Origin: Corallococcus coralloides
Lineage (GTDB): Bacteria; Myxococcota; Myxococcia; Myxococcales; Myxococcaceae
Assembly: GCF_004104415.1 (NCBI RefSeq)
Contig: NZ_CP034669.1
DNA: 64,000 bases
Strand: one strand, 5' to 3'
Under the pieces are notes generated by a model. It had not been told where the DNA came from. It was given only the letters and a program-made list of their open reading frames with translations, and did no database searches. The position numbers and the translations under genes are program-made. Position 1 is the first letter of the stretch. The number at the start of each line of letters is the position of its first letter. Below, piece by piece: positions 4,781 to 13,305 of this stretch.

Positions 4781-6292
4781 TCAGGGCACGGTCAGCGCGC
4801 GCAGCAGGCGTCCGCCGCCGGGGCCGGCCACGCGCAACAGCAGCGTGCTGCCCTTGGGCGCGGCGCGGATGGCCGCCGCCAGCTCCTTCGCGCTCGCGAT
4901 GGGCTTCTTGTTCGCCTCCACCACCAGCATGCCCGGCGTCAGCTGCGCTCGGTCCGCGGGCGAGCCCGGGACGATGTCCGTGATGAGCGCGCCGGCGCGC
5001 TCGGTGAAGCCCGCCTGGGACGCCGTGCGGGCATCCAGGTCCTGCAGGGACACGCCCACGCGGCGCGAGCTGTCCTGCTCGTCGGTGGCCCCCGGCTTCT
5101 TCTTGGACAGGCCCTCCAGGTCCGGCCGGGTGCCCATGGTCACCTTGACGTCCTGCTTCTTGCCGTCGCGGTAGAGGGTCAGCGTGGCGACGGACTTGGG
5201 CTTCTTGAGCGCCACGGTGCGGGTCAGCTCGCTGTCCGAGCGCACCGGCTTGCCGTCCACGGCCACCACCACGTCGTCCGGCTTGAGCCCGGCCTTCGCC
5301 GCCGGGGAGTCGGGGGTGATCTGCGTGAGGATGGCGCCCTCGCTCACCGACAGCTTCAGCGCCTGGCCCAGCTCGCGCGTGAGGGGCTGGATGCCCACGC
5401 CCAGCCAGCCGCGCGTGACGGCGCCCTCCTTCTGCAGCTGCGGCAGCAGCGCCTGGATGAGGTTGCTGGGCACGGAGAAGCCAATGCCCGTGCCGCCGCC
5501 GACGATGGCGGTGTTGATGCCCACCACCTCGCCCTTCATGTTGAAGAGCGGGCCGCCGGAGTTGCCGGGGTTGATGGCCGCGTCCGTCTGCAGGAAGTCG
5601 TCGTACACGCTGGCGCCGATTTCCCGGGCGCGCGCGGACAGGATGCCCACGCTCACGCTGGAGGCCAGGCCGAACGGGTTGCCGATGGCCAGCACCCAGT
5701 CCCCCACGCGCACGGCGTCCGAGTCCCCCAGCTTCACGGAGGGGAGCTGATCCACCTTCTCCTTGATCTTCACCACAGCCACGTCGGTGAGCGGGTCGCG
5801 CCCCACCACCTCGCCGGTGAACGAACGGCCGTCGTCCAGGCGGATGGTGATGGTGACCGCGTCCTCGATGACGTGGTTGTTGGTGAGCACCAGGCCCTTG
5901 GGGTCGATGATGAAGCCGGACCCGGCGCCCTGGCGGATCTGCTCGCGCTCGCTGCGGCCGCCGCGGCCCCGCCCGTTGCCTCCGAAGAACCGGTCGAAGA
6001 GCGGGTTGTCCTCCATGCCCTCCGGCATTTCGGGACGGGCCTGCACGTCCACGTTCACCACGGCGGACTTCACCGACTCCACCAGGGGCGCCAGCGAGGC
6101 CAGCGACTGGGCCTCACGTGTGGCGGGCTGGAGGTTGCCGGCCTGACCGGAGGCCGCCTGCTGCGTCTTGGGCGCGACCGGCTGGAGAGCGGGAGCCTGC
6201 GCGAGGGCGAGCGTGGGCGACGCCAACACCAGCACGGCGGCCACGAGCTTGCGACGGAACGGAGGGAGCGTGTGGGTCATGGATTTCCTCAA
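4781..6292 (-). CDS. DegP/HtrA (Do-family) periplasmic serine protease with two PDZ domains
   Basis: Signal peptide LVAAVLVLASPTLALA; trypsin-like motifs TNNHV, DVAVVK and GNSGGPL; two C-terminal PDZ-like regions. Confidence 0.85.
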   Translation of the reverse strand: MRKSMTHTLPPFRRKLVAAVLVLASPTLALAQAPALQPVAPKTQQAASGQAGNLQPATREAQSLASLAPLVESVKSAVVNVDVQARPEMPEGMEDNPLFDRFFGGNGRGRGGRSEREQIRQGAGSGFIIDPKGLVLTNNHVIEDAVTITIRLDDGRSFTGEVVGRDPLTDVAVVKIKEKVDQLPSVKLGDSDAVRVGDWVLAIGNPFGLASSVSVGILSARAREIGASVYDDFLQTDAAINPGNSGGPLFNMKGEVVGINTAIVGGGTGIGFSVPSNLIQALLPQLQKEGAVTRGWLGVGIQPLTRELGQALKLSVSEGAILTQITPDSPAAKAGLKPDDVVVAVDGKPVRSDSELTRTVALKKPKSVATLTLYRDGKKQDVKVTMGTRPDLEGLSKKKPGATDEQDSSRRVGVSLQDLDARTASQAGFTERAGALITDIVPGSPADRAQLTPGMLVVEANKKPIASAKELAAAIRAAPKGSTLLLRVAGPGGGRLLRALTVP

Positions 6293-6382: not shown

Positions 6383-7972
6383 TCAACCGGGCCGGTAGAC
6401 GCGGTAGTCCAGCTCGGGGAACAGGTTGTCGCGGCCTTCGACGTGGGACAGCCACGGCTCGTCAACGGTTCCGGCGCGCACCTGGTCGTGCAGGCGCAGG
6501 AAGCGCTGCAGGTGCTCCTGCGTGCGGCGCACGGCGTAGTCCACCATGGTGCCGGTCTTCATGATGAAGGCCCAGTCGGAGGACTGCGCCAGCAGCAGCT
6601 CGCGCGCGGCCTGGTTCAGCGCCCGGCGCTTGAGGGACGGCGCGTCCGGGAAGTCCCGGGCCAGCTCCACCATCTGCCGCGCGGCGTGGTTCAGGTGCCG
6701 GTAGATCCAGTCGTTCGTCCCATCCAGCCACATGTTCGCGTAGCCGCCCGCGCCCCAGGAGGACATGGCCGGCGTGGCCACCTGGTTCTCCGGGTGCTCG
6801 CGCAGGTCGTCCAGCGGGCTGATGAGCGTGAAGCGGCTGGGGTTGCGCGCGGCCTGGCGGATGAGGGCGTCGATGAAGTGGGGGCCCTCGAACCACCAGT
6901 GGCCGAAGAGCTCCGCGTCATAGGGCGCGACGACCACGGGCTTGCGGCCGCCCATGCGCGACGCGAGGTATTCGAACTGGCGCTCGCGGTTGAAGAGGAA
7001 GTTGCCCGCGTGGACCCAGGCGCGCTCGCGGGCGGCGGCCGGGTCGTAGGGCTGCTTGTCGTTCGTCTTGCCGGTGATGCGGAAGTACTTGAAGCCGGTG
7101 TTCTTGCGCTCGCCGGTGGGCTGGATGAAGGGCCGGACGTAGTCCAGGTCCAGGTCCCAGCCGATGTCCCGGTAGAACTCGCGGTAGACGGGGTCGCCGG
7201 GGTAGCCGTGCTCGGTGCTCCAGACCTGCTGGCTGCTCTCCGGGTCGCGCGCGAAGGCCGCGACGCCCGGCTCGGTGAAGATGGGCGCGTAGGGGCCGTG
7301 CAGCGGGCGGGGCGTGGCGTCCGTGAGCGCGTGCGTGTCCGCGAAGAAGTAGCGGATGCGCTCGGCGGAGAGGATGCGCTCCAGGCCCGGGTAGTAGCCG
7401 CACTCGGCCAGCCAGATGCCGGCGGGGTCGCGGCCGAAGTTCTGGCGGTAGTGGTTCGCCGCCACCGTCACCTGCGCGCGCACGGCCTCCGGCGTCTGCT
7501 GCATGAGCGGCAGGAAGCCGTGGGTCGCGTTGCAGGTGAGGATGTCCAGGTGGCCGGAGTCCTGGAGCCTGCGGAACGCCGCCACCAGGTCGCGCCGGTA
7601 GTGGTTGTGGTACGCGAGCCGCAGCGATTCGAAGTGGTCGCGGTGGAAGACGGCCAGCGGGTGGAAGGTGGCGTCATCCCGGGTGCGGTGCACCTCGCGG
7701 GCGCCCAGCTCGCAGAGCGAGTCCAGCCGCCGGGCGTAGCGCTCCCGCAGCAGGTCGTCGTTGAGCATGGACACGAGCGTGGGCGAGAGCGTCATCGTCA
7801 CCCGGAAGGGGACGCGGTCCTCGACCAGCCTGTCGAACACGCGCAAGAGCGGCAGGTACGTCTCGGAGATGGCCTCGTAGAGCCAGTCCTCTTCGAGGAA
7901 GTCTTCGTACTCGGGGTGGCGGACGAACGGCAGGTGCGCGTGAAGGACCAGCGCGAGGGAGCCCAGGCTCAT
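6383..7972 (-). CDS. Glycoside hydrolase family 57 alpha-1,4-glucan branching enzyme
   Basis: ORF 6383..8338(-); the true start is the internal MSLGSLALVLHAHLPFVRHPEYEDF at 7972, the canonical GH57 N-terminus. The ORF's upstream extension overlaps the neighbouring gene. Conserved GH57 blocks run throughout (WLAECGY, DAELFGHWWFEG). Confidence 0.8.
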   Translation of the reverse strand: MSLGSLALVLHAHLPFVRHPEYEDFLEEDWLYEAISETYLPLLRVFDRLVEDRVPFRVTMTLSPTLVSMLNDDLLRERYARRLDSLCELGAREVHRTRDDATFHPLAVFHRDHFESLRLAYHNHYRRDLVAAFRRLQDSGHLDILTCNATHGFLPLMQQTPEAVRAQVTVAANHYRQNFGRDPAGIWLAECGYYPGLERILSAERIRYFFADTHALTDATPRPLHGPYAPIFTEPGVAAFARDPESSQQVWSTEHGYPGDPVYREFYRDIGWDLDLDYVRPFIQPTGERKNTGFKYFRITGKTNDKQPYDPAAARERAWVHAGNFLFNRERQFEYLASRMGGRKPVVVAPYDAELFGHWWFEGPHFIDALIRQAARNPSRFTLISPLDDLREHPENQVATPAMSSWGAGGYANMWLDGTNDWIYRHLNHAARQMVELARDFPDAPSLKRRALNQAARELLLAQSSDWAFIMKTGTMVDYAVRRTQEHLQRFLRLHDQVRAGTVDEPWLSHVEGRDNLFPELDYRVYRPG

Positions 7973-7998
7973 AGGTCGGTCGGAGAGGCCGTGCGGGT

Positions 7999-10401
7999 TC
8001 ACTTCCGTCCACGGCGCGACGGCCGGGACTTGGAGGACTTGGAGGACTTGGAGCCCGGGGGCTTGGGCTCCGGTGGGTTCTGGGCCGCCTTCGGAGGCGC
8101 GGCGGGCGGGGACTTCACGGCGTCCGTCTTGGGAGCCGCGGCGCTCGAAGCCGCCGGGGCCTCCACCTTCGGAGCCTCGACTTGCACGGGTGAGGGGCTC
8201 ACGGGCACGGAGGCCAGTGCGGCCCGTCGCGCGGCCTCGCGAGCCTTGTCGAGGGCACGCTGTTCGGACGCGGAGGGACCGCGCGCCACGCTCAAGGCCC
8301 ACGGGTCCCTGGGAGGCTCGGGCTCCGTGGGCCGCCACGAATCCGTGGAGGCAGCATCCTGGGTCGATGGGCCGGACAGGACCGAAGCCTCGGCTCCCAT
8401 CGGCGTCGAGGTCTCGGCGGGACGCGATGACGGGAGGTCCCGCGCTTCGAGTACGTCCCCTCGTGAACGCGGTGACTCCGGGGACCAGGCATCCGAGCCC
8501 CCGGCCGTACGCACTGCGCCGGGCTGATCCGAAGTGCCCGTGGCGTGATCCGCGGAGAGGTAGCGCTGATCCGAAGCGCCCGCCGCCCGTGGCACCGTCA
8601 GGTATTGCTGATCCGAAGCGCCCGTGGCCCGGTCCATCGACAGGTAGCGCTGATCCGAAGCTCCCGGCGCCCGTGGCACGGTCAGGTACTGCTGGTCCGA
8701 AGCTCCCGCCGCGCGAGGCACGCTCAGATACCGCTGATCCGAAGCTCCCGCGGCGCGAGGCACGCTCAGGTAGCGCTGGTCCGAAGTCCCCGGCGCTCGC
8801 TGCATGTCCTGGGTCCCCTGCCCTCCCGCCACGTACCGCTGGTCCGAAGCTCCCGGTGCACGCGGCACCTCCAGATAGCGGTACTCCGAAACGCCTCCCG
8901 GCAGCAGCGCCTGCCCGTACCGCTGATCCGAAGCACCCGGCGCGCGCGGCACCTCCAGATACGGAGACGCCACGTCATGGCGCTGGTCCGAAGCGCCCGG
9001 AGCCAGCTCCACGGCCAGATAGCGCTGATCCGAGGCCCCGGGAGCACGAGACGGGGCCAGCACCGCGCCCTCACCGAGCGTCGCCTCCCCCACGCGCGCA
9101 TACTGCTGGTCCGACGCACCCGGCGCTCGCGGCGCGCTCTCCAGATACGCCTCTTCCACGTAGCGCTGGTCCGAAGCCCCGGGGACGCGCGGCGCATCGA
9201 CATAGGCCTCGGTGCGCTCCCGGTGGACCTCCGGCACGTCCCCCCCCCCGGCGCTCCCGGGCAGTTGCACCCGGCGCCAGGTGACGTATTCGCGCTCCTC
9301 CACCCGAGGAACCCGCGCGGACGCCGCCGAGGGGACCGCGTCGCGCAGCCGGTCCACCACCGGAGGAGGCGGCATGCGCAGGAACCGGATGGACGTGTCC
9401 GCCGACGGCCCCGCGGGCGGCAGCGTGGCCCGATTGGACGAATGTCCGATGCGGCGTGACCGGCCATCCGAACCGACGAAGTGCGCCTCCACCCGGTACG
9501 TGCGCCCGGGCGTCATGCCCTGCAGATAGAAGCTGCGCGACTCCAGCGCGAAGTCCACCTCGCGCGACACGCCCTCGCCATCGAACACCTTCAGCACCGC
9601 GCGCGGCGCCGGCAGCGCGTCGAGCGCCCGGCTCCGGCTCGCCTCACTGAAGTCCCAGAAGACGAAGAGCGTGTGCGGATCCCTGGCGAGCAGCACCATC
9701 GCGTCGTCCTGGTAGTCCAGGGGCAGCATGGCCAGGTGCTCGTTCCGCTCGGGCGACGCGTCCGCCGGAGGAAGGCGCGGCGCCTGCTCCTCCAGGAGGT
9801 GATGGCGGCGCGCCTCCTTCTCCCCCGCCATCTTCGTCACGAAGAACCCCTCCACCAGGGGCTCGGCGGCATGCGGCGGCTCGCTCGCGGGCGCGGGCTT
9901 CGCGGCGGCGGGCGCGTCCTCCCTGGGAGCGCTCGACGGGCGCGGCGTGGGCGCCTCGGGAGCCAGGGACAGCGTGTCCCCTTCGTCGTCCAGGTCGCGG
10001 CGCGTCTTCGCGCGGGCGGGGAACGTCACCACGCGAGCGGGCCGCGTTCTGGGGCCACCGCTGGGCTCCGTGATGGGCTCCTCGGAAAGTTCTCGTGCCT
10101 GCGGCGCGGCGGCGCTCTCGGGCGGAGGCAGGGGTACGGACCCGGACGTCGAGCCCTTGTCGGAGCGGGAATCCGCCGGGCCGGAATCCAGGACCCGCTC
10201 CTCGCCGCCCACGGCACCGGAGCCGCGCCGGGACGTCGCCAGGCCGGCCATGCGCGCGAGCCGCCCCAGGGCGGGAATGCGCTCGGCCAGCGAGGTGACC
10301 CACTCCCGCCCGCGGGACACGCCAGCTCCCTCCCGGAGATATTTCCGGGCCAGCTGCCGCAGGTAGCTCACGGTGACGCCCTTCCGCTCATCCATGGACA
10401 C
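7999..10401 (-). CDS. Repeat-rich DUF4912-like protein with approximately 15 tandem PRAPGASDQRYL units and a Lys/Pro/Ala-rich basic tail
   Basis: 800-aa ORF. The beta-sandwich-like region (LLARDPHTLFVFWDF...YRVEAHF) fits the DUF4912 family that co-occurs with GH57. The central tandem repeat is (V/A)PRAPGASDQ(R/Q)YL. C-terminus is PKAAQNPPEPKPPGSKSSKSSKSRPSRRGRK. It sits 26 nt upstream of the GH57 gene on the same strand. Confidence 0.6.
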   Translation of the reverse strand: MSMDERKGVTVSYLRQLARKYLREGAGVSRGREWVTSLAERIPALGRLARMAGLATSRRGSGAVGGEERVLDSGPADSRSDKGSTSGSVPLPPPESAAAPQARELSEEPITEPSGGPRTRPARVVTFPARAKTRRDLDDEGDTLSLAPEAPTPRPSSAPREDAPAAAKPAPASEPPHAAEPLVEGFFVTKMAGEKEARRHHLLEEQAPRLPPADASPERNEHLAMLPLDYQDDAMVLLARDPHTLFVFWDFSEASRSRALDALPAPRAVLKVFDGEGVSREVDFALESRSFYLQGMTPGRTYRVEAHFVGSDGRSRRIGHSSNRATLPPAGPSADTSIRFLRMPPPPVVDRLRDAVPSAASARVPRVEEREYVTWRRVQLPGSAGGGDVPEVHRERTEAYVDAPRVPGASDQRYVEEAYLESAPRAPGASDQQYARVGEATLGEGAVLAPSRAPGASDQRYLAVELAPGASDQRHDVASPYLEVPRAPGASDQRYGQALLPGGVSEYRYLEVPRAPGASDQRYVAGGQGTQDMQRAPGTSDQRYLSVPRAAGASDQRYLSVPRAAGASDQQYLTVPRAPGASDQRYLSMDRATGASDQQYLTVPRAAGASDQRYLSADHATGTSDQPGAVRTAGGSDAWSPESPRSRGDVLEARDLPSSRPAETSTPMGAEASVLSGPSTQDAASTDSWRPTEPEPPRDPWALSVARGPSASEQRALDKAREAARRAALASVPVSPSPVQVEAPKVEAPAASSAAAPKTDAVKSPPAAPPKAAQNPPEPKPPGSKSSKSSKSRPSRRGRK
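8540..9220. repeat. In-frame tandem repeat of about 39-42 bp, roughly 15 copies, encoding PRAPGASDQRYL units
   Basis: Visible in the nucleotide sequence as a recurring gcgctgatccgaag(c/t)(g/t)cccg(c/g/t)(c/g)gc... unit, and in the protein as repeated APGASDQRY. Confidence 0.7.
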
Positions 10402-10530: not shown

Positions 10531-13305
10531 TTGAGCGACCTGCCCAGACTTCTCCTGTGCAGCTTTGACGTCATCCCCGGCCCGTCTGGCTCCTCACGCC
10601 GACTGACCGAGTATCTGAAGGCGTTGCCTGATCGCTTCTCCGTGGTGGTGCTGTCGGCGAAGACGCCCGACCACTCCCATATCGAGAAGTACCAGGGCGC
10701 CCGGCTGCTCCGCGTCCCGGTAGGCTCCGGGGACCTGGCGTCGCGCATCCAGTCCTTTGAACGGGCCGTGCGCCGGCAGCTCGAAAGCGAGGACTACGCC
10801 CTCGCCCACTTCACGGACCCCTTCGGCGGGTACGCGCTGTGCGAGCTGAAGGCGGACTACGGCTACCGCCTCATCTATGAGGCGCAGACGTTCCCGTCCC
10901 AGGAGCTGCGCTACACCCATCCCCAGACGGACGGCGACCGCCGCTTCCTGTCGAAGATCCGCCGCCAGGAGCTGTTCTGCCTGATGAACGCGGACCTCGT
11001 CGTCACCGGCTCGCAGACGACGCGCGCGTTCATCCAGGGGCTGGGCGCCGCGGAGGACCAGCTGCGCACGATTCGCGCGCCCGTGGACCTGAAGCCGTAC
11101 GACCCGGAGGTGCTCGGCGCCCCGGACGGTTCGCCGCTTAGAATGATGTACCTGGGCAGCCACGTGGGCTGGCAGGGCCTGCCCACCCTCCTGCGCGCCA
11201 CCGCGCTCGCGGCCCAGCAGGTGGACGTGCGCCTGACGTTGGTGGGCGCGCACCATCCGGACTGGAAGCCCCACCTGGAGGACCTGGTCAACGACCTGGG
11301 CATCAAGGAGAAGGTCGACTTCCAGCCGCCCGTCGCGCACGACGACCTGGTAAAGGTGCTGGCGCTGGCGGACGTGGGCGTGCTGCCGCTGGACGACTCG
11401 GAGCGCAACCGGCTCCAGGGCGGACCGCTGGCCAAGGTCTCCGAGTACCTGGCCGCCGGCCGGCCGGTCATCGCCGCGGACCTGCCCGTCACCCGCGAGC
11501 TGATTCCGAAGGACGCGGCCCTCTTCTTCCCCCCGGGCGACAGCCGCGCCCTCTCCGAGCGCATCCTGGACCTGGCGCGCGACGTGCCCCGCCGCGTGGC
11601 GCTGGGCAAGGCCGGGCGCGCGTTCGCGGAGAAGGTGCTGGACGCGGGCCTCATCCGGGGCCAGCTGCTGGACCTCTACGACTCGCTGCTGGAGAAGCGC
11701 GGCCACGTCCCGGTCGAAGCCGCCAGCGAGCCGCCCGACGTCACGATGACGGGCACGCCCACGAACAGGCTCGCGAGCCTGGGCATGCCGGAGGCGTCCC
11801 AGCCCGCGCCGGCGCCCAGGCCGCCCGCGAAGCCCGCCGTCCAGGCCGGGTCCGGCGAAGCCGCCCCGCCCCCCGCGAAGGACGGCCCGGAGGACGCGCC
11901 CGTGGTGATGGGCATGGCCCTGGACGACGGGATGGACACCCGGCTCGTCAAGACCGAGCCGGACATGCGGCCGGACGAAGTGCCCATGGTCATGGGCCTG
12001 CCGCTGCGCGAGTCCGCCAGCGCCGCGCCGGCCCCCGCGAGCAGGGAAGCCACGCCGCCTCCGGAGCCCGAGGCCGCGCCCCAGAAGACCGACGACACCG
12101 CGAAGACGACGCTCCCCTCCTCCCCCGCGAAGGACCCCGAGCCGGAGCCGCTGGGGGGCCGTGGCTCGGAGCCGGCTCCACCCACGGAGATGGTGACGAG
12201 TCCCCTGGTGAAGGCCCTCGGCTTGAAGGAGCTCAGCGGGGACGACGCCGGGGCTTCGGATTCGGCGGCCCGCGCCTCCGGGGATGGCTCCTCCGGAGCG
12301 ACGGCGGTGGTGCGCCGGCCGGCGGAAGTGGCGGAAGACGACACGAGCACGCCGGCCCCCACGCCCGTCGTGCGCAGGCCCGCCTCCGAGGATGAGGCCC
12401 CCGCCCCCACGCCCGTGGTGCGCCGGCCCCTGCCGGAAGACGAACCGCCCGCGGCCACGCCCATCGTGCGCCGCCCCACCTCCCTCTCCGAGGACGAGGA
12501 GCGGGCCCCCACGCCCGTCGTGCGCCGGGCCGGGGTCATGCGTGAGGAGGAAGAGGCCCCCGCGCCCACCCCCATCGTGCCCATGCGCTCGTTGCTGGCC
12601 GGGGCGCGAAGCACGGGCGCCGGCCGTGCGCAGCGGTCGCAGGACTCCGCCCCCTCTGAACCCCCGCGTCTCTTCCCCACTCCCACTCCCATGGCCGACG
12701 CGGAAAAACCGCCCATCCGTGGCGGCCTCGCCGCGGATCCAGGCCGGCCCGCCTCCCGCCCCCCGGTGCTCTCGGAGTCCGACAAGCCGCCCATCCGCGG
12801 TGGCTCCGTCTCCGACGCGGACCGCCCGCCGCAGCTGCCGCCCCGCGCCGCCGCGCCGCCGCCCGTTCCGCGCCAGGGACCGCCGCCCCGGCTGAGCCCC
12901 ACGCCGCCCGTGCTCAAGCCCTCCGCGTCACCCGACGACGAGCCGGAGGAGATCGCCGCCGACGAGGCCCTGTCCCTGGACGACGACGCCGGCAACACGC
13001 CCTCCAACGCCACCGCGGCGCTGGACGAGGCGGAGGAGATCGCCGCCGACGAGGTCCACGACGCGGACTCGCTCGACGTGGAGGCCGCGGACGCCGTGGA
13101 TGAAGGGCCTCCGCCCGCGCCGCCCGACTCCACCCTCAACCCGTGGTTCGCCCAGTTGGCGCACGGGTACTGTCCCCCCGAGGGCGCCCGCTTCGCCCGG
13201 CCCACCCCGCCCACCAACTTCCCCGGGCGGGAGCCGGAAGCAGGCGCGTCCCCCGGGTCGGTCCCCCCTGTCGGGCAGGGAGCGGTTCGCGGCAAGAACT
13301 CGTGA
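10531..13305 (+). CDS. GT4-family glycosyltransferase (approximately 400-aa catalytic domain) with an approximately 520-aa Pro/Ala/Glu-rich disordered C-terminal extension
   Basis: The N-terminal domain has a GT-B/GT4 layout (FDVIPGPSGSS..., a LYEAQTFPSQEL-type block, and a C-terminal Rossmann EYLAAGRPVIAADLPVTRE). The tail carries APTPVVRRP x5, KPPIRGG x2 and EEIAADE x2 repeats. The only in-frame start is TTG at 10531. It is divergent from the DUF4912 gene. Confidence 0.75.
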   Translation: MSDLPRLLLCSFDVIPGPSGSSRRLTEYLKALPDRFSVVVLSAKTPDHSHIEKYQGARLLRVPVGSGDLASRIQSFERAVRRQLESEDYALAHFTDPFGGYALCELKADYGYRLIYEAQTFPSQELRYTHPQTDGDRRFLSKIRRQELFCLMNADLVVTGSQTTRAFIQGLGAAEDQLRTIRAPVDLKPYDPEVLGAPDGSPLRMMYLGSHVGWQGLPTLLRATALAAQQVDVRLTLVGAHHPDWKPHLEDLVNDLGIKEKVDFQPPVAHDDLVKVLALADVGVLPLDDSERNRLQGGPLAKVSEYLAAGRPVIAADLPVTRELIPKDAALFFPPGDSRALSERILDLARDVPRRVALGKAGRAFAEKVLDAGLIRGQLLDLYDSLLEKRGHVPVEAASEPPDVTMTGTPTNRLASLGMPEASQPAPAPRPPAKPAVQAGSGEAAPPPAKDGPEDAPVVMGMALDDGMDTRLVKTEPDMRPDEVPMVMGLPLRESASAAPAPASREATPPPEPEAAPQKTDDTAKTTLPSSPAKDPEPEPLGGRGSEPAPPTEMVTSPLVKALGLKELSGDDAGASDSAARASGDGSSGATAVVRRPAEVAEDDTSTPAPTPVVRRPASEDEAPAPTPVVRRPLPEDEPPAATPIVRRPTSLSEDEERAPTPVVRRAGVMREEEEAPAPTPIVPMRSLLAGARSTGAGRAQRSQDSAPSEPPRLFPTPTPMADAEKPPIRGGLAADPGRPASRPPVLSESDKPPIRGGSVSDADRPPQLPPRAAAPPPVPRQGPPPRLSPTPPVLKPSASPDDEPEEIAADEALSLDDDAGNTPSNATAALDEAEEIAADEVHDADSLDVEAADAVDEGPPPAPPDSTLNPWFAQLAHGYCPPEGARFARPTPPTNFPGREPEAGASPGSVPPVGQGAVRGKNS

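Follow-up and report, generated by a model that had tools for sequence, protein, structure and literature searches.

CsoS2 of the carboxysome and EPYC1 of the pyrenoid are multivalent disordered linker or scaffold proteins, glycogenin is the protein primer of eukaryotic glycogen, and the YG/CW_binding_1 repeats of streptococcal glucansucrases are folded, extracellular units of about 20 amino acids (aa). We compare these systems with a tandem peptide array in the C-terminal tail of a DUF4912 protein from Corallococcus coralloides. Its gene lies in a 64,000-nucleotide stretch of contig NZ_CP034669.1 (the window, to which all coordinates refer), next to a gene for an alpha-glucan branching enzyme of glycoside hydrolase family 57 (GH57). 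A preliminary description of the same DNA, made from the letters alone, had noticed the repeat. Our analysis indicates that it is a real, selected and previously undescribed motif array, of a kind (a tandem short-linear-motif array in a disordered tail) that is already known.

The protein shares with CsoS2 and EPYC1 a (predicted) disordered chain, tandem conserved motifs, variable linkers and copy number, and a gene beside that of an enzyme; it differs in having no sequence relation to them and in its candidate client, which would be GH57 or alpha-glucan and not Rubisco. Glycogenin and proteoglycan cores are laid out alike, a globular domain being joined through a variable disordered linker to a C-terminal peptide that is conserved, with an exposed hydroxyl in an acidic context and a gene link to glucan enzymes, but the protein studied here has neither a GT8 domain nor any other catalytic domain, its conserved hydroxyl residue is Ser and not Tyr, and the Tyr of its repeat is replaced by Trp in Archangium. 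We rejected an identity as glycogenin, since the self-glucosylating glycosyltransferase domain is absent and the predicted fold is like that of FN3 domains. With the YG/CW_binding_1 repeats the array has in common tandem short repeats, a conserved aromatic residue and Gly, and a tie to alpha-glucan; its units are however only 13-15 aa long, predicted to be disordered and part of a protein with no signal peptide evident by eye. The likenesses to CsoS2, EPYC1 and glycogenin are analogies, not memberships.

The one described family to which the protein does belong is DUF4912 (PF16258), whose model matches with 70.4 bits against a curated cut-off of 29.4 (E 2e-19); an NCBIfam scan of the 800-aa protein gave no match, leaving DUF4912 as the sole domain from the two collections. 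Orthologues are annotated as DUF4912 proteins as well, and relatives combine Rho_N with DUF4912, an architecture that has been noted in cyanobacteria (a 2026 paper, PMC13613805). The Pfam model covers only aa 230-335, and no described family includes the array, the C-terminal P-S-x-x-G-R motif or the linkage to GH57. The literature searched assigns no function to DUF4912.

A copy-variable motif array under purifying selection

The core G[AT]SDQ occurs 13 times in exact form, at aa 408, 428, 455, 469, 489, 517, 538, 552, 566, 580, 594, 608 and 622, with core-to-core spacings of 20, 27, 14, 20, 28, 21, 14, 14, 14, 14, 14 and 14 aa. Three degenerate copies accompany them, GVSEYRYL (aa 503-510), GGSDAW and GPSASEQRAL (Table 1), which bears out the estimate of about fifteen copies in the preliminary description. 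The array proper covers aa 404-639 (8485-9192); the earlier placement at 8540-9220 had the right region and was shifted by a few tens of bases. Outside a 12-aa core the linkers measure 2-16 aa, and not 0-10 aa as first thought. Per unit, G, S, D and Q are present in 13 of 13 cases, Y in 11 and R in 9, and the Ser-Asp-Gln-Arg-Tyr sequence described as invariant is so for its first three residues and slightly overstated for the last two.

Repeat detection, proposed as a check in the preliminary description, found a 42-bp period: Tandem Repeats Finder reported 6.3 copies with 79% matches at 8523-8786 and a second block of 3.1 copies, again of period 42, at 8834-8962. The core positions of the irregularly spaced block A (at about aa 407, 427, 454, 468 and 488) recur in orthologues P0001-P0015 and are kept in most Corallococcus orthologues. 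Block B follows the consensus YL[ST]VPRA[AP]GASDQ[RQ] and varies in copy number between species. Composition does not account for these numbers: when the whole protein was shuffled 5000 times with its composition preserved, G[AST]S[DE] occurred 0.23 times on average and at most 3 times, and when the tail alone was shuffled, 0.08 times and at most twice, compared with 13 observed. The motif was found in no other reading frame or gene of the window, and at E up to 0.01 none of the repeat families in Pfam, the glucan-binding YG/CW_binding_1 repeats included, matched the array. A protein-database search with the repeat region alone returned two partial DUF4912 proteins, with a candidate list so swamped that it does not exclude the motif elsewhere.

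To separate selection on the protein from repeat turnover we used the ratio of non-synonymous to synonymous substitution rates (dN/dS), estimated by the Nei-Gojobori method on a codon-by-codon alignment to three Corallococcus orthologues (loci L024-L026). The GxSDQ core had a dN/dS of 0.02-0.04, the remainder of the 12-aa core 0.06-0.18, the linkers between units 0.36-0.45, the tail after the repeats 0.32-0.43 and the DUF4912 domain 0.13-0.18. Purifying selection is stronger on the core than on the folded domain. Synonymous divergence was itself raised within the repeats (dS 0.3-0.57, compared with 0.11-0.23 in the DUF4912 domain), which probably reflects some pairing of non-orthologous units; the conclusion on selection stands all the same, because dN is near zero whichever units were paired.

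At the codon level, the invariant Gly is encoded in the window by GGC, GGA, GGG and GGT, Arg by four codons and Asp by GAT and GAC, confirming the synonymous drift between units that had been described earlier; codon differences between units amount to 298 synonymous and 269 non-synonymous ones. For the core Ser, Corallococcus and Myxococcus xanthus use TCG throughout, whereas Archangium uses TCC, TCG or TCT. Nine of 13 units have the rare Ala codon GCT, which encodes none of the 51 Ala residues of the adjacent GH57 gene, so the units also share descent as DNA. Comparing the window with loci L001 and L002, we also observed that in Corallococcus and M. xanthus the Ala before the core Ser is mostly GCT, within GCTTCGGA[CT]CAG, and that the corresponding codons vary in Archangium. 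The shared codons point to homogenisation of units or shared descent within the Myxococcaceae, on top of selection at the protein level.

Whole units have also been gained and lost. In the orthologue of C. coralloides DSM 2259 one 20-aa unit and several 14-aa units have been added, whole-unit insertions or deletions separate the window protein from orthologues P0003 and P0023, and the number of G[AST]S[DE] motifs in Corallococcus-type proteins ranges from 11 to 16. Protein-level selection and slippage or unequal recombination are thus both at work. The preliminary description had set selection against slippage; its first half is upheld by the dN/dS of the core, while whole-unit gain and loss and the shared GCT codon show that slippage or recombination contributes too.

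Comparison of copy number among orthologues, the second check proposed at the outset, gave 1-19 copies at variable spacing, and yet all 120 of the listed Myxococcaceae/Archangiaceae-type orthologues carry, downstream of the DUF4912 domain, G-[AS]-S-[DE] and then an aromatic residue. The outcome that the preliminary description had named as refuting, a highly variable or missing array with no conserved residues, was therefore not observed: copy number varies, and the core residues are kept. The unit is YL[ST]VPRA[AP]GASDQRY (14 aa) in Corallococcus, YLESPPRAPGASD[QML]RY (15 aa, core GASD[QML]RY) in Myxococcus, and W.WSAGPAGSSEQW (13 aa, core GSSEQW.W) in Archangium and its relatives. Across 387 Corallococcus-type units G and S were present in 100%, A in 99%, D in 93%, Q in 91%, Y at +6 in 91% and R at -3 in 93%, and in more than 1000 units from four groups Ser was present in 100%, making it the most conserved position. 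Common to all is G-[AS]-S-[DE], usually with Q next and an aromatic residue one or two positions on, and with an aromatic/hydrophobic pair 7-9 residues upstream. The aromatic residues, which are W.W in Archangium and Y in the other two genera, interchange between lineages and recur every 13-15 residues in all of them, and Arg is frequent in Corallococcus and Myxococcus. Some orthologues (P0049, P0067) carry only one or two copies.

A profile search of 1.8 billion cluster representatives extended the family to 1177 relatives. Among the 139 more distant ones listed, 34% have at least one G[AST]S[DE], compared with 6.7% in shuffles, a five-fold excess, and in a Vulgatibacter/Anaeromyxobacteraceae-type subfamily a single G-A-S-[DE] (LGASE) is found in which G and S are invariant. 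On these comparisons the Corallococcus array is a lineage-specific amplification, and the short linear motif behind it is widespread in the family, because the core is present in 120 of 120 orthologues and a single invariant LGASE in many distant relatives.

Structure prediction, also among the checks first suggested, gave a folded DUF4912 domain and an array that is predicted to be intrinsically disordered. In the AlphaFold2 models (five models built on an alignment of 30 sequences) the predicted local distance difference test score (pLDDT) was 34-41 across the array in all five, with no secondary structure, and below 50 over aa 407-693. The tail is of low complexity, rich in A, G, R, S, P, Q, D and Y. 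A rigid spacer rod, one of the roles entertained in the preliminary description, is not supported by such scores and by the lack of predicted secondary structure. A confident helix (aa 711-730) begins at the degenerate copy GPSASEQRAL.

Pairing with GH57 and the surrounding genes

In all 27 loci examined (the window and 26 others, drawn from Corallococcus, Myxococcus, Archangium, Anaeromyxobacteraceae, Vulgatibacter and unclassified metagenome bins) the DUF4912 gene is directly followed by a GH57 gene, and this obligate pairing is the strongest functional clue. In the window the GH57 start codon, an ATG at 7972, lies 26 nt past the DUF4912 stop codon, a gap that suggests an operon, and the two genes are probably co-transcribed. 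The GH57 open reading frame (ORF) as called mechanically, 6383-8338 on the minus strand, extends 122 codons further upstream into the DUF4912 gene in another frame; we place the start at 7972, in agreement with the orthologues and with the 529-aa gene called in M. xanthus. The closest solved structure to the enzyme is Thermotoga maritima AmyC (2B5D, E 1.7e-169).

Eighteen of the loci (L004-L021, from Vulgatibacter, Anaeromyxobacteraceae and other bins) came from a scan of a genome collection, queried with a narrow Anaeromyxobacter/Vulgatibacter-type subfamily alignment. GH57 directly follows DUF4912 in every one of them, with an identity to the window copy of 66-70% in 17 and of 49% in the most distant. 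Neither a family 4 glycosyltransferase (GT4) nor a DegP-like protease, the other neighbours in the window, was detected in the flanks of these 18 loci. In the sole annotated Anaeromyxobacteraceae-type locus (L011) the DUF4912-GH57 pair is the only shared element, the other neighbours being unrelated, and the pair recurs in two metagenomic loci that are more distant still. The pairing goes unmentioned in the literature checked, including a GH57 survey paper that is silent on neighbouring genes.

Closer to the window the synteny is longer. M. xanthus, Archangium and a third genome preserve the order GT4 / DUF4912, GH57, DegP, and its GT4 / DUF4912, GH57 part was seen in three more Corallococcus loci. 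We considered the DegP-like protease as a general partner, with its PDZ domains on the C-terminal motif, and rejected it on account of its absence from the 18 scanned loci. From its position next to the GH57 gene MXAN_2994 we infer that the M. xanthus orthologue is MXAN_2993; MXAN_2994 appears in the literature only as a proximity-labelling bystander, and no mention of MXAN_2992 or MXAN_2993 was found in the literature searched.

The GT4 gene, divergent from DUF4912, adjoins it only in Myxococcaceae/Archangiaceae-type loci, and the closest solved relative of its product is a sucrose-phosphate-synthase-like protein. The product has a tail of its own, Pro/Glu/Ala-rich from about 11720, with five copies of PTP[VI]VRRP and two of DKPPIRGG and a conserved end block LNPWFAQLAHGYCPPEG..FAR.TPPT.FPGR...RGK.S; the number of motifs differs in M. 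xanthus and in the third genome (L003), and they are absent in Archangium. Its ...RGK.S end is loosely like the ...GR[SK] end of the DUF4912 protein. Beyond GT4, and always beside it in Myxococcaceae/Archangiaceae-type loci, lies the gene of a 1535-aa receiver and coiled-coil protein, syntenic with that of a 1395-aa M. xanthus protein which we take to be the gliding-motility protein AglZ.

Table 1. Features of the DUF4912 gene, its product and the neighbouring genes, in window coordinates.
Feature	Position	Strand	Remarks
DegP/HtrA-like serine protease	4781-6292	minus	two PDZ domains; directly downstream of GH57
GH57 alpha-glucan branching enzyme, 529 aa	6383..7972	minus	Pfam Glyco_hydro_57 and BE_C
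DUF4912 protein gene	7999..10401	minus	800-aa ORF; sole ORF with homologues across the region
C-terminal tail GSKSSKSSKSRPSRRGRK	8002..8055	minus	ends P-S-R-R-G-R-K; conserved end motif P-S-x-x-G-R
Isolated degenerate copy GPSASEQRAL, aa 708-717	8251..8280	minus	kept in Corallococcus orthologues
Terminal degenerate unit GGSDAW, aa 634-639	8485..8502	minus	
Repeat block B, aa 534-629	8515..8802	minus	seven units at exactly 14 aa (42 bp)
Repeat block A, aa 404-524	8830..9192	minus	six units at irregular 14-28-aa spacing, plus degenerate GVSEYRYL
Example peptide YLSVPRAAGASDQRYL			an example of peptides one to three units long
Conserved beta hairpin EEREYVTWRRVQLPGS...HRER, aa 368-401	9199..9300	minus	invariant L-P-G-S turn resembling the repeat core
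DUF4912 domain, aa 230-335	9397..9714	minus	FN3-like beta sandwich (predicted)
Invariant linear stretch AEPLVEGFFVTKMAGEKEARRHHL (AEPLVEGFFV..G.E...HHL), aa 179-202	9796..9867	minus	predicted disordered, pLDDT <50
Invariant linear stretch RPA.VV.FP, aa 120-132	10006-10044	minus	predicted disordered; kept across 30 aligned sequences
N-terminal three-helix Rho_N/SAP-like module, aa 9-51	10249..10377	minus	AlphaFold2 helices; PF07498 in relatives
GT4 glycosyltransferase	10531..13305	plus	Pfam; divergent from DUF4912; ~500-aa repeat-bearing disordered tail
Receiver and long coiled-coil protein, 1535 aa	13393-18000	plus	AglZ-like; receiver domain N-terminal; coiled coil with crescentin-rod-like matches

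The rest of the DUF4912 protein

The closest relatives of the protein are other Corallococcus DUF4912 proteins, at 70-99% identity, and a search of the PDB with the whole sequence returned nothing at E up to 1. Its true start is probably the ATG at 10395, the third codon of the ORF, because orthologues begin MDERK. Two antisense plus-strand ORFs cross the repeat, at 8073-9284 (403 aa) and 8545-9459 (304 aa), and translate to Arg/Pro-rich low complexity; as genes they are unsupported, being typical artefacts of high-GC DNA. At the N-terminus AlphaFold2 placed helices at aa 11-22, 30-41 and 43-51 (pLDDT 54-77). The first 60 aa of the window protein have no Pfam match, the M. xanthus orthologue scores 24.7 bits for Rho_N, just below the cut-off of 24.9, and PF07498 (Rho_N) is clearly matched in distant DUF4912 relatives. 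When domain fusions were sought in ten longer DUF4912 relatives, Rho_N alone turned up.

The DUF4912 domain was modelled confidently (pLDDT 78-93) as a seven-strand beta sandwich that superposes on FN3 domains. In the 30-sequence alignment E184, G185, F186, F187, V188, G193, E196, H200 and H201 of the second disordered stretch are invariant, and both such stretches (Table 1) are candidate binding peptides, possibly the real GH57 contact. The hairpin that follows the domain (strands aa 367-379 and 386-398, pLDDT about 80, joined by the invariant L-P-G-S turn) has R370, Y372, W375, R377, L380, P381, G382, S383 and E395 invariant in the same alignment.

The protein does end in ...GSKSSKSSKSRPSRRGRK, as first described, and three residues of this end (S795, G798 and R799) are nearly invariant in the 30 sequences. 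The label of a histone-H1-like tail is not supported by comparison: the conserved element is the terminal P-S-x-x-G-R, present in 29 of 30 Corallococcus-type, 27 of 41 Myxococcus-type and 39 of 49 Archangium-type proteins, and in most relatives it stands without lysines. Relatives that lack a lysine run end in KPPSGGGRS or PSSSGQGR, and distant ones in W(T/S)PPPSGRGR or RPWSGT. The lysine/serine run of the window protein stems from an exact 9-bp tandem repeat, GGACTTGGA in 3.1 copies at 8026-8053, which reads KSSKSSKS on the minus strand and of which close orthologues have shorter versions. What likeness there is to AlgP and histone-H1 tails lies in orthologues P0037, P0089 and P0050, which are annotated as AlgP on account of linkers rich in Lys, Ala and Pro, and in the short basic Ser/Lys run at the end of the window protein; this run is only 18 aa long, and extended Lys/Ala/Pro repeats conserved as such were not found.

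What the array may do

What the array does we infer from these comparisons, and the reading that we favour, tentatively and at somewhat less than an even chance, is that the repeats form a multivalent set of docking sites on an adaptor protein of alpha-glucan metabolism. A short linear motif that is ancestral to this branch of the DUF4912 family, consisting of an aromatic-hydrophobic pair, 4-6 Pro/Arg-rich residues, G-[AS]-S-[DE]-Q and then Arg or an aromatic residue, has been tandemly amplified to about 15 copies in the C-terminal tail, which is predicted to be disordered. Each unit would be a low-affinity docking site, and the array as a whole would gather a partner of cytoplasmic alpha-glucan metabolism, the likeliest being the presumably co-transcribed GH57 enzyme and the alternatives GT4, the FN3-like domain of the same protein, or the glucan, contacted through the conserved Tyr/Trp. 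Avidity would rise with the number of copies, and this proposed scaling would account for a core that is fixed beside a copy number and a spacing that are free to vary.

The build of the protein, with a Rho_N-like module, an FN3-like sandwich, a repeat tail and a conserved C-terminal peptide, fits a docking adaptor. As in known multivalent motif scaffolds, the repeats lie in a region predicted to be disordered (pLDDT <50), and a conserved motif is set among fast-evolving linkers (by dN/dS) in variable copy number (1-19).

Several observations weigh against docking. The monomer model docked no unit onto the protein's own domain. The adjacency of GH57 is a functional link, which is neither physical binding nor an indication of which part would bind. 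Two-thirds of the distant DUF4912 representatives are without G[AS]S[DE], and yet L011 and L014 pair with GH57; since the motif-less DUF4912 proteins examined still pair with the enzyme, the motif is not a universal GH57-binding element, and the EGFFV...HHL peptide or the C-terminal motif may be the general GH57 link. Finally, an invariant Ser with an acidic residue also fits a modification site. A broader proposal, which we regard as rather doubtful in its full form, would make DUF4912 the dedicated partner subunit of AmyC-type GH57 enzymes, with the G-[AS]-S-[DE]-Q-aromatic units either docking the enzyme, and in Myxococcaceae the tailed GT4 as well, into an assembly that makes glucan, or priming glucan covalently through Ser, and with copy number setting the enzymes or chains per molecule.

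The units could instead be acceptors of a modification on the invariant Ser or on the Tyr, either phosphorylation by one of the numerous Ser/Thr kinases of myxobacteria or an O-glucosylation that primes alpha-glucan; in the priming version the chains would be extended by the glycosyltransferase and branched by GH57, as on a glycogenin or proteoglycan core. We consider this unlikely, although it has points in its favour: Ser is the most conserved residue and is followed by Asp/Glu in an exposed, predicted disordered chain, the gene is flanked by those of GT4 and GH57, and amplified arrays coincide with an adjacent GT4, the Anaeromyxobacteraceae-type loci without GT4 having the single-copy subfamily. 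This correlation rests however on two clades, the protein has DUF4912 as its only domain and no catalytic one, and the closest solved relative of GT4 is not a glycogen synthase. The change of Tyr to Trp in Archangium means that a glycogenin-like Tyr acceptor is not conserved. Phosphoproteomics had been among the checks first suggested; the literature searched yielded neither a phosphoproteome data set of M. xanthus nor any phosphoproteomic or glycoproteomic data on its orthologue of the protein.

Self-association of a sticker-and-spacer chain, perhaps as a condensate around glucan granules, with Tyr/Trp and Arg as stickers and Gly/Ser/Gln/Ala/Pro as spacers and in place of binding to a single folded partner, seems to us improbable. 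The regular recurrence of aromatic residues in all lineages, the frequent Arg of Corallococcus and Myxococcus, the low-complexity, predicted-disordered sequence and the labile copy number would suit it, but pure sequences of this type rarely hold an invariant five-residue core at such a low dN/dS, and the keeping of G-[AS]-S-[DE] even in single copy is better explained by specific recognition.

A regular fold hidden from prediction by the shallow alignment, such as stacked beta hairpins or a solenoid akin to the upstream hairpin and forming a structural rod or fibre, is very improbable. The hairpin at aa 367-398, with its L-P-G-S turn, does show a Y...R...PGS pattern like that of one unit, and the degenerate copy at aa 708-717 starts a confident helix; against this stand the uniformly low pLDDT of the array in all five models, Pro and Gly in every unit, the irregular spacing of block A and linkers that vary between species.

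Least credible of all is a neutral low-complexity expansion by slippage or unequal recombination, serving at most as a flexible spacer from the DUF4912 domain to the C-terminal motif: the variable copies and spacing between species, the gain and loss of whole units, the rare codons that speak for recent common descent, and the orthologues with no more than one or two copies are compatible with it, but it is largely refuted by the selection data, namely a core dN/dS below that of the folded domain, a core kept across genera with different codons, and a motif whose lone copy is invariant in distant relatives and which is five-fold above shuffles in distant representatives.

GH57 branching enzymes are widespread, and their cellular role is poorly understood. 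T. maritima AmyC, the closest solved relative of the enzyme here, was first called an amylase, and was reported later to be a glycogen-branching enzyme whose hydrolytic activity is high (PMC6616209). In the Myxococcota the GH57 enzyme comes with a fixed upstream partner gene that bears a strongly selected, copy-variable peptide motif, and this offers an experimental handle: a defined peptide of 12-14 residues, a natural series of 1-19 copies and the genetically tractable M. xanthus. If the motif docks or primes glucan enzymes, no organiser protein of alpha-glucan synthesis in bacteria would have been described before this one, and if priming through Ser holds, the product would be a bacterial protein-primed, multi-chain glucan. 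Should neither docking nor priming apply, the array would still be a clean case of a short linear motif amplified under purifying selection.

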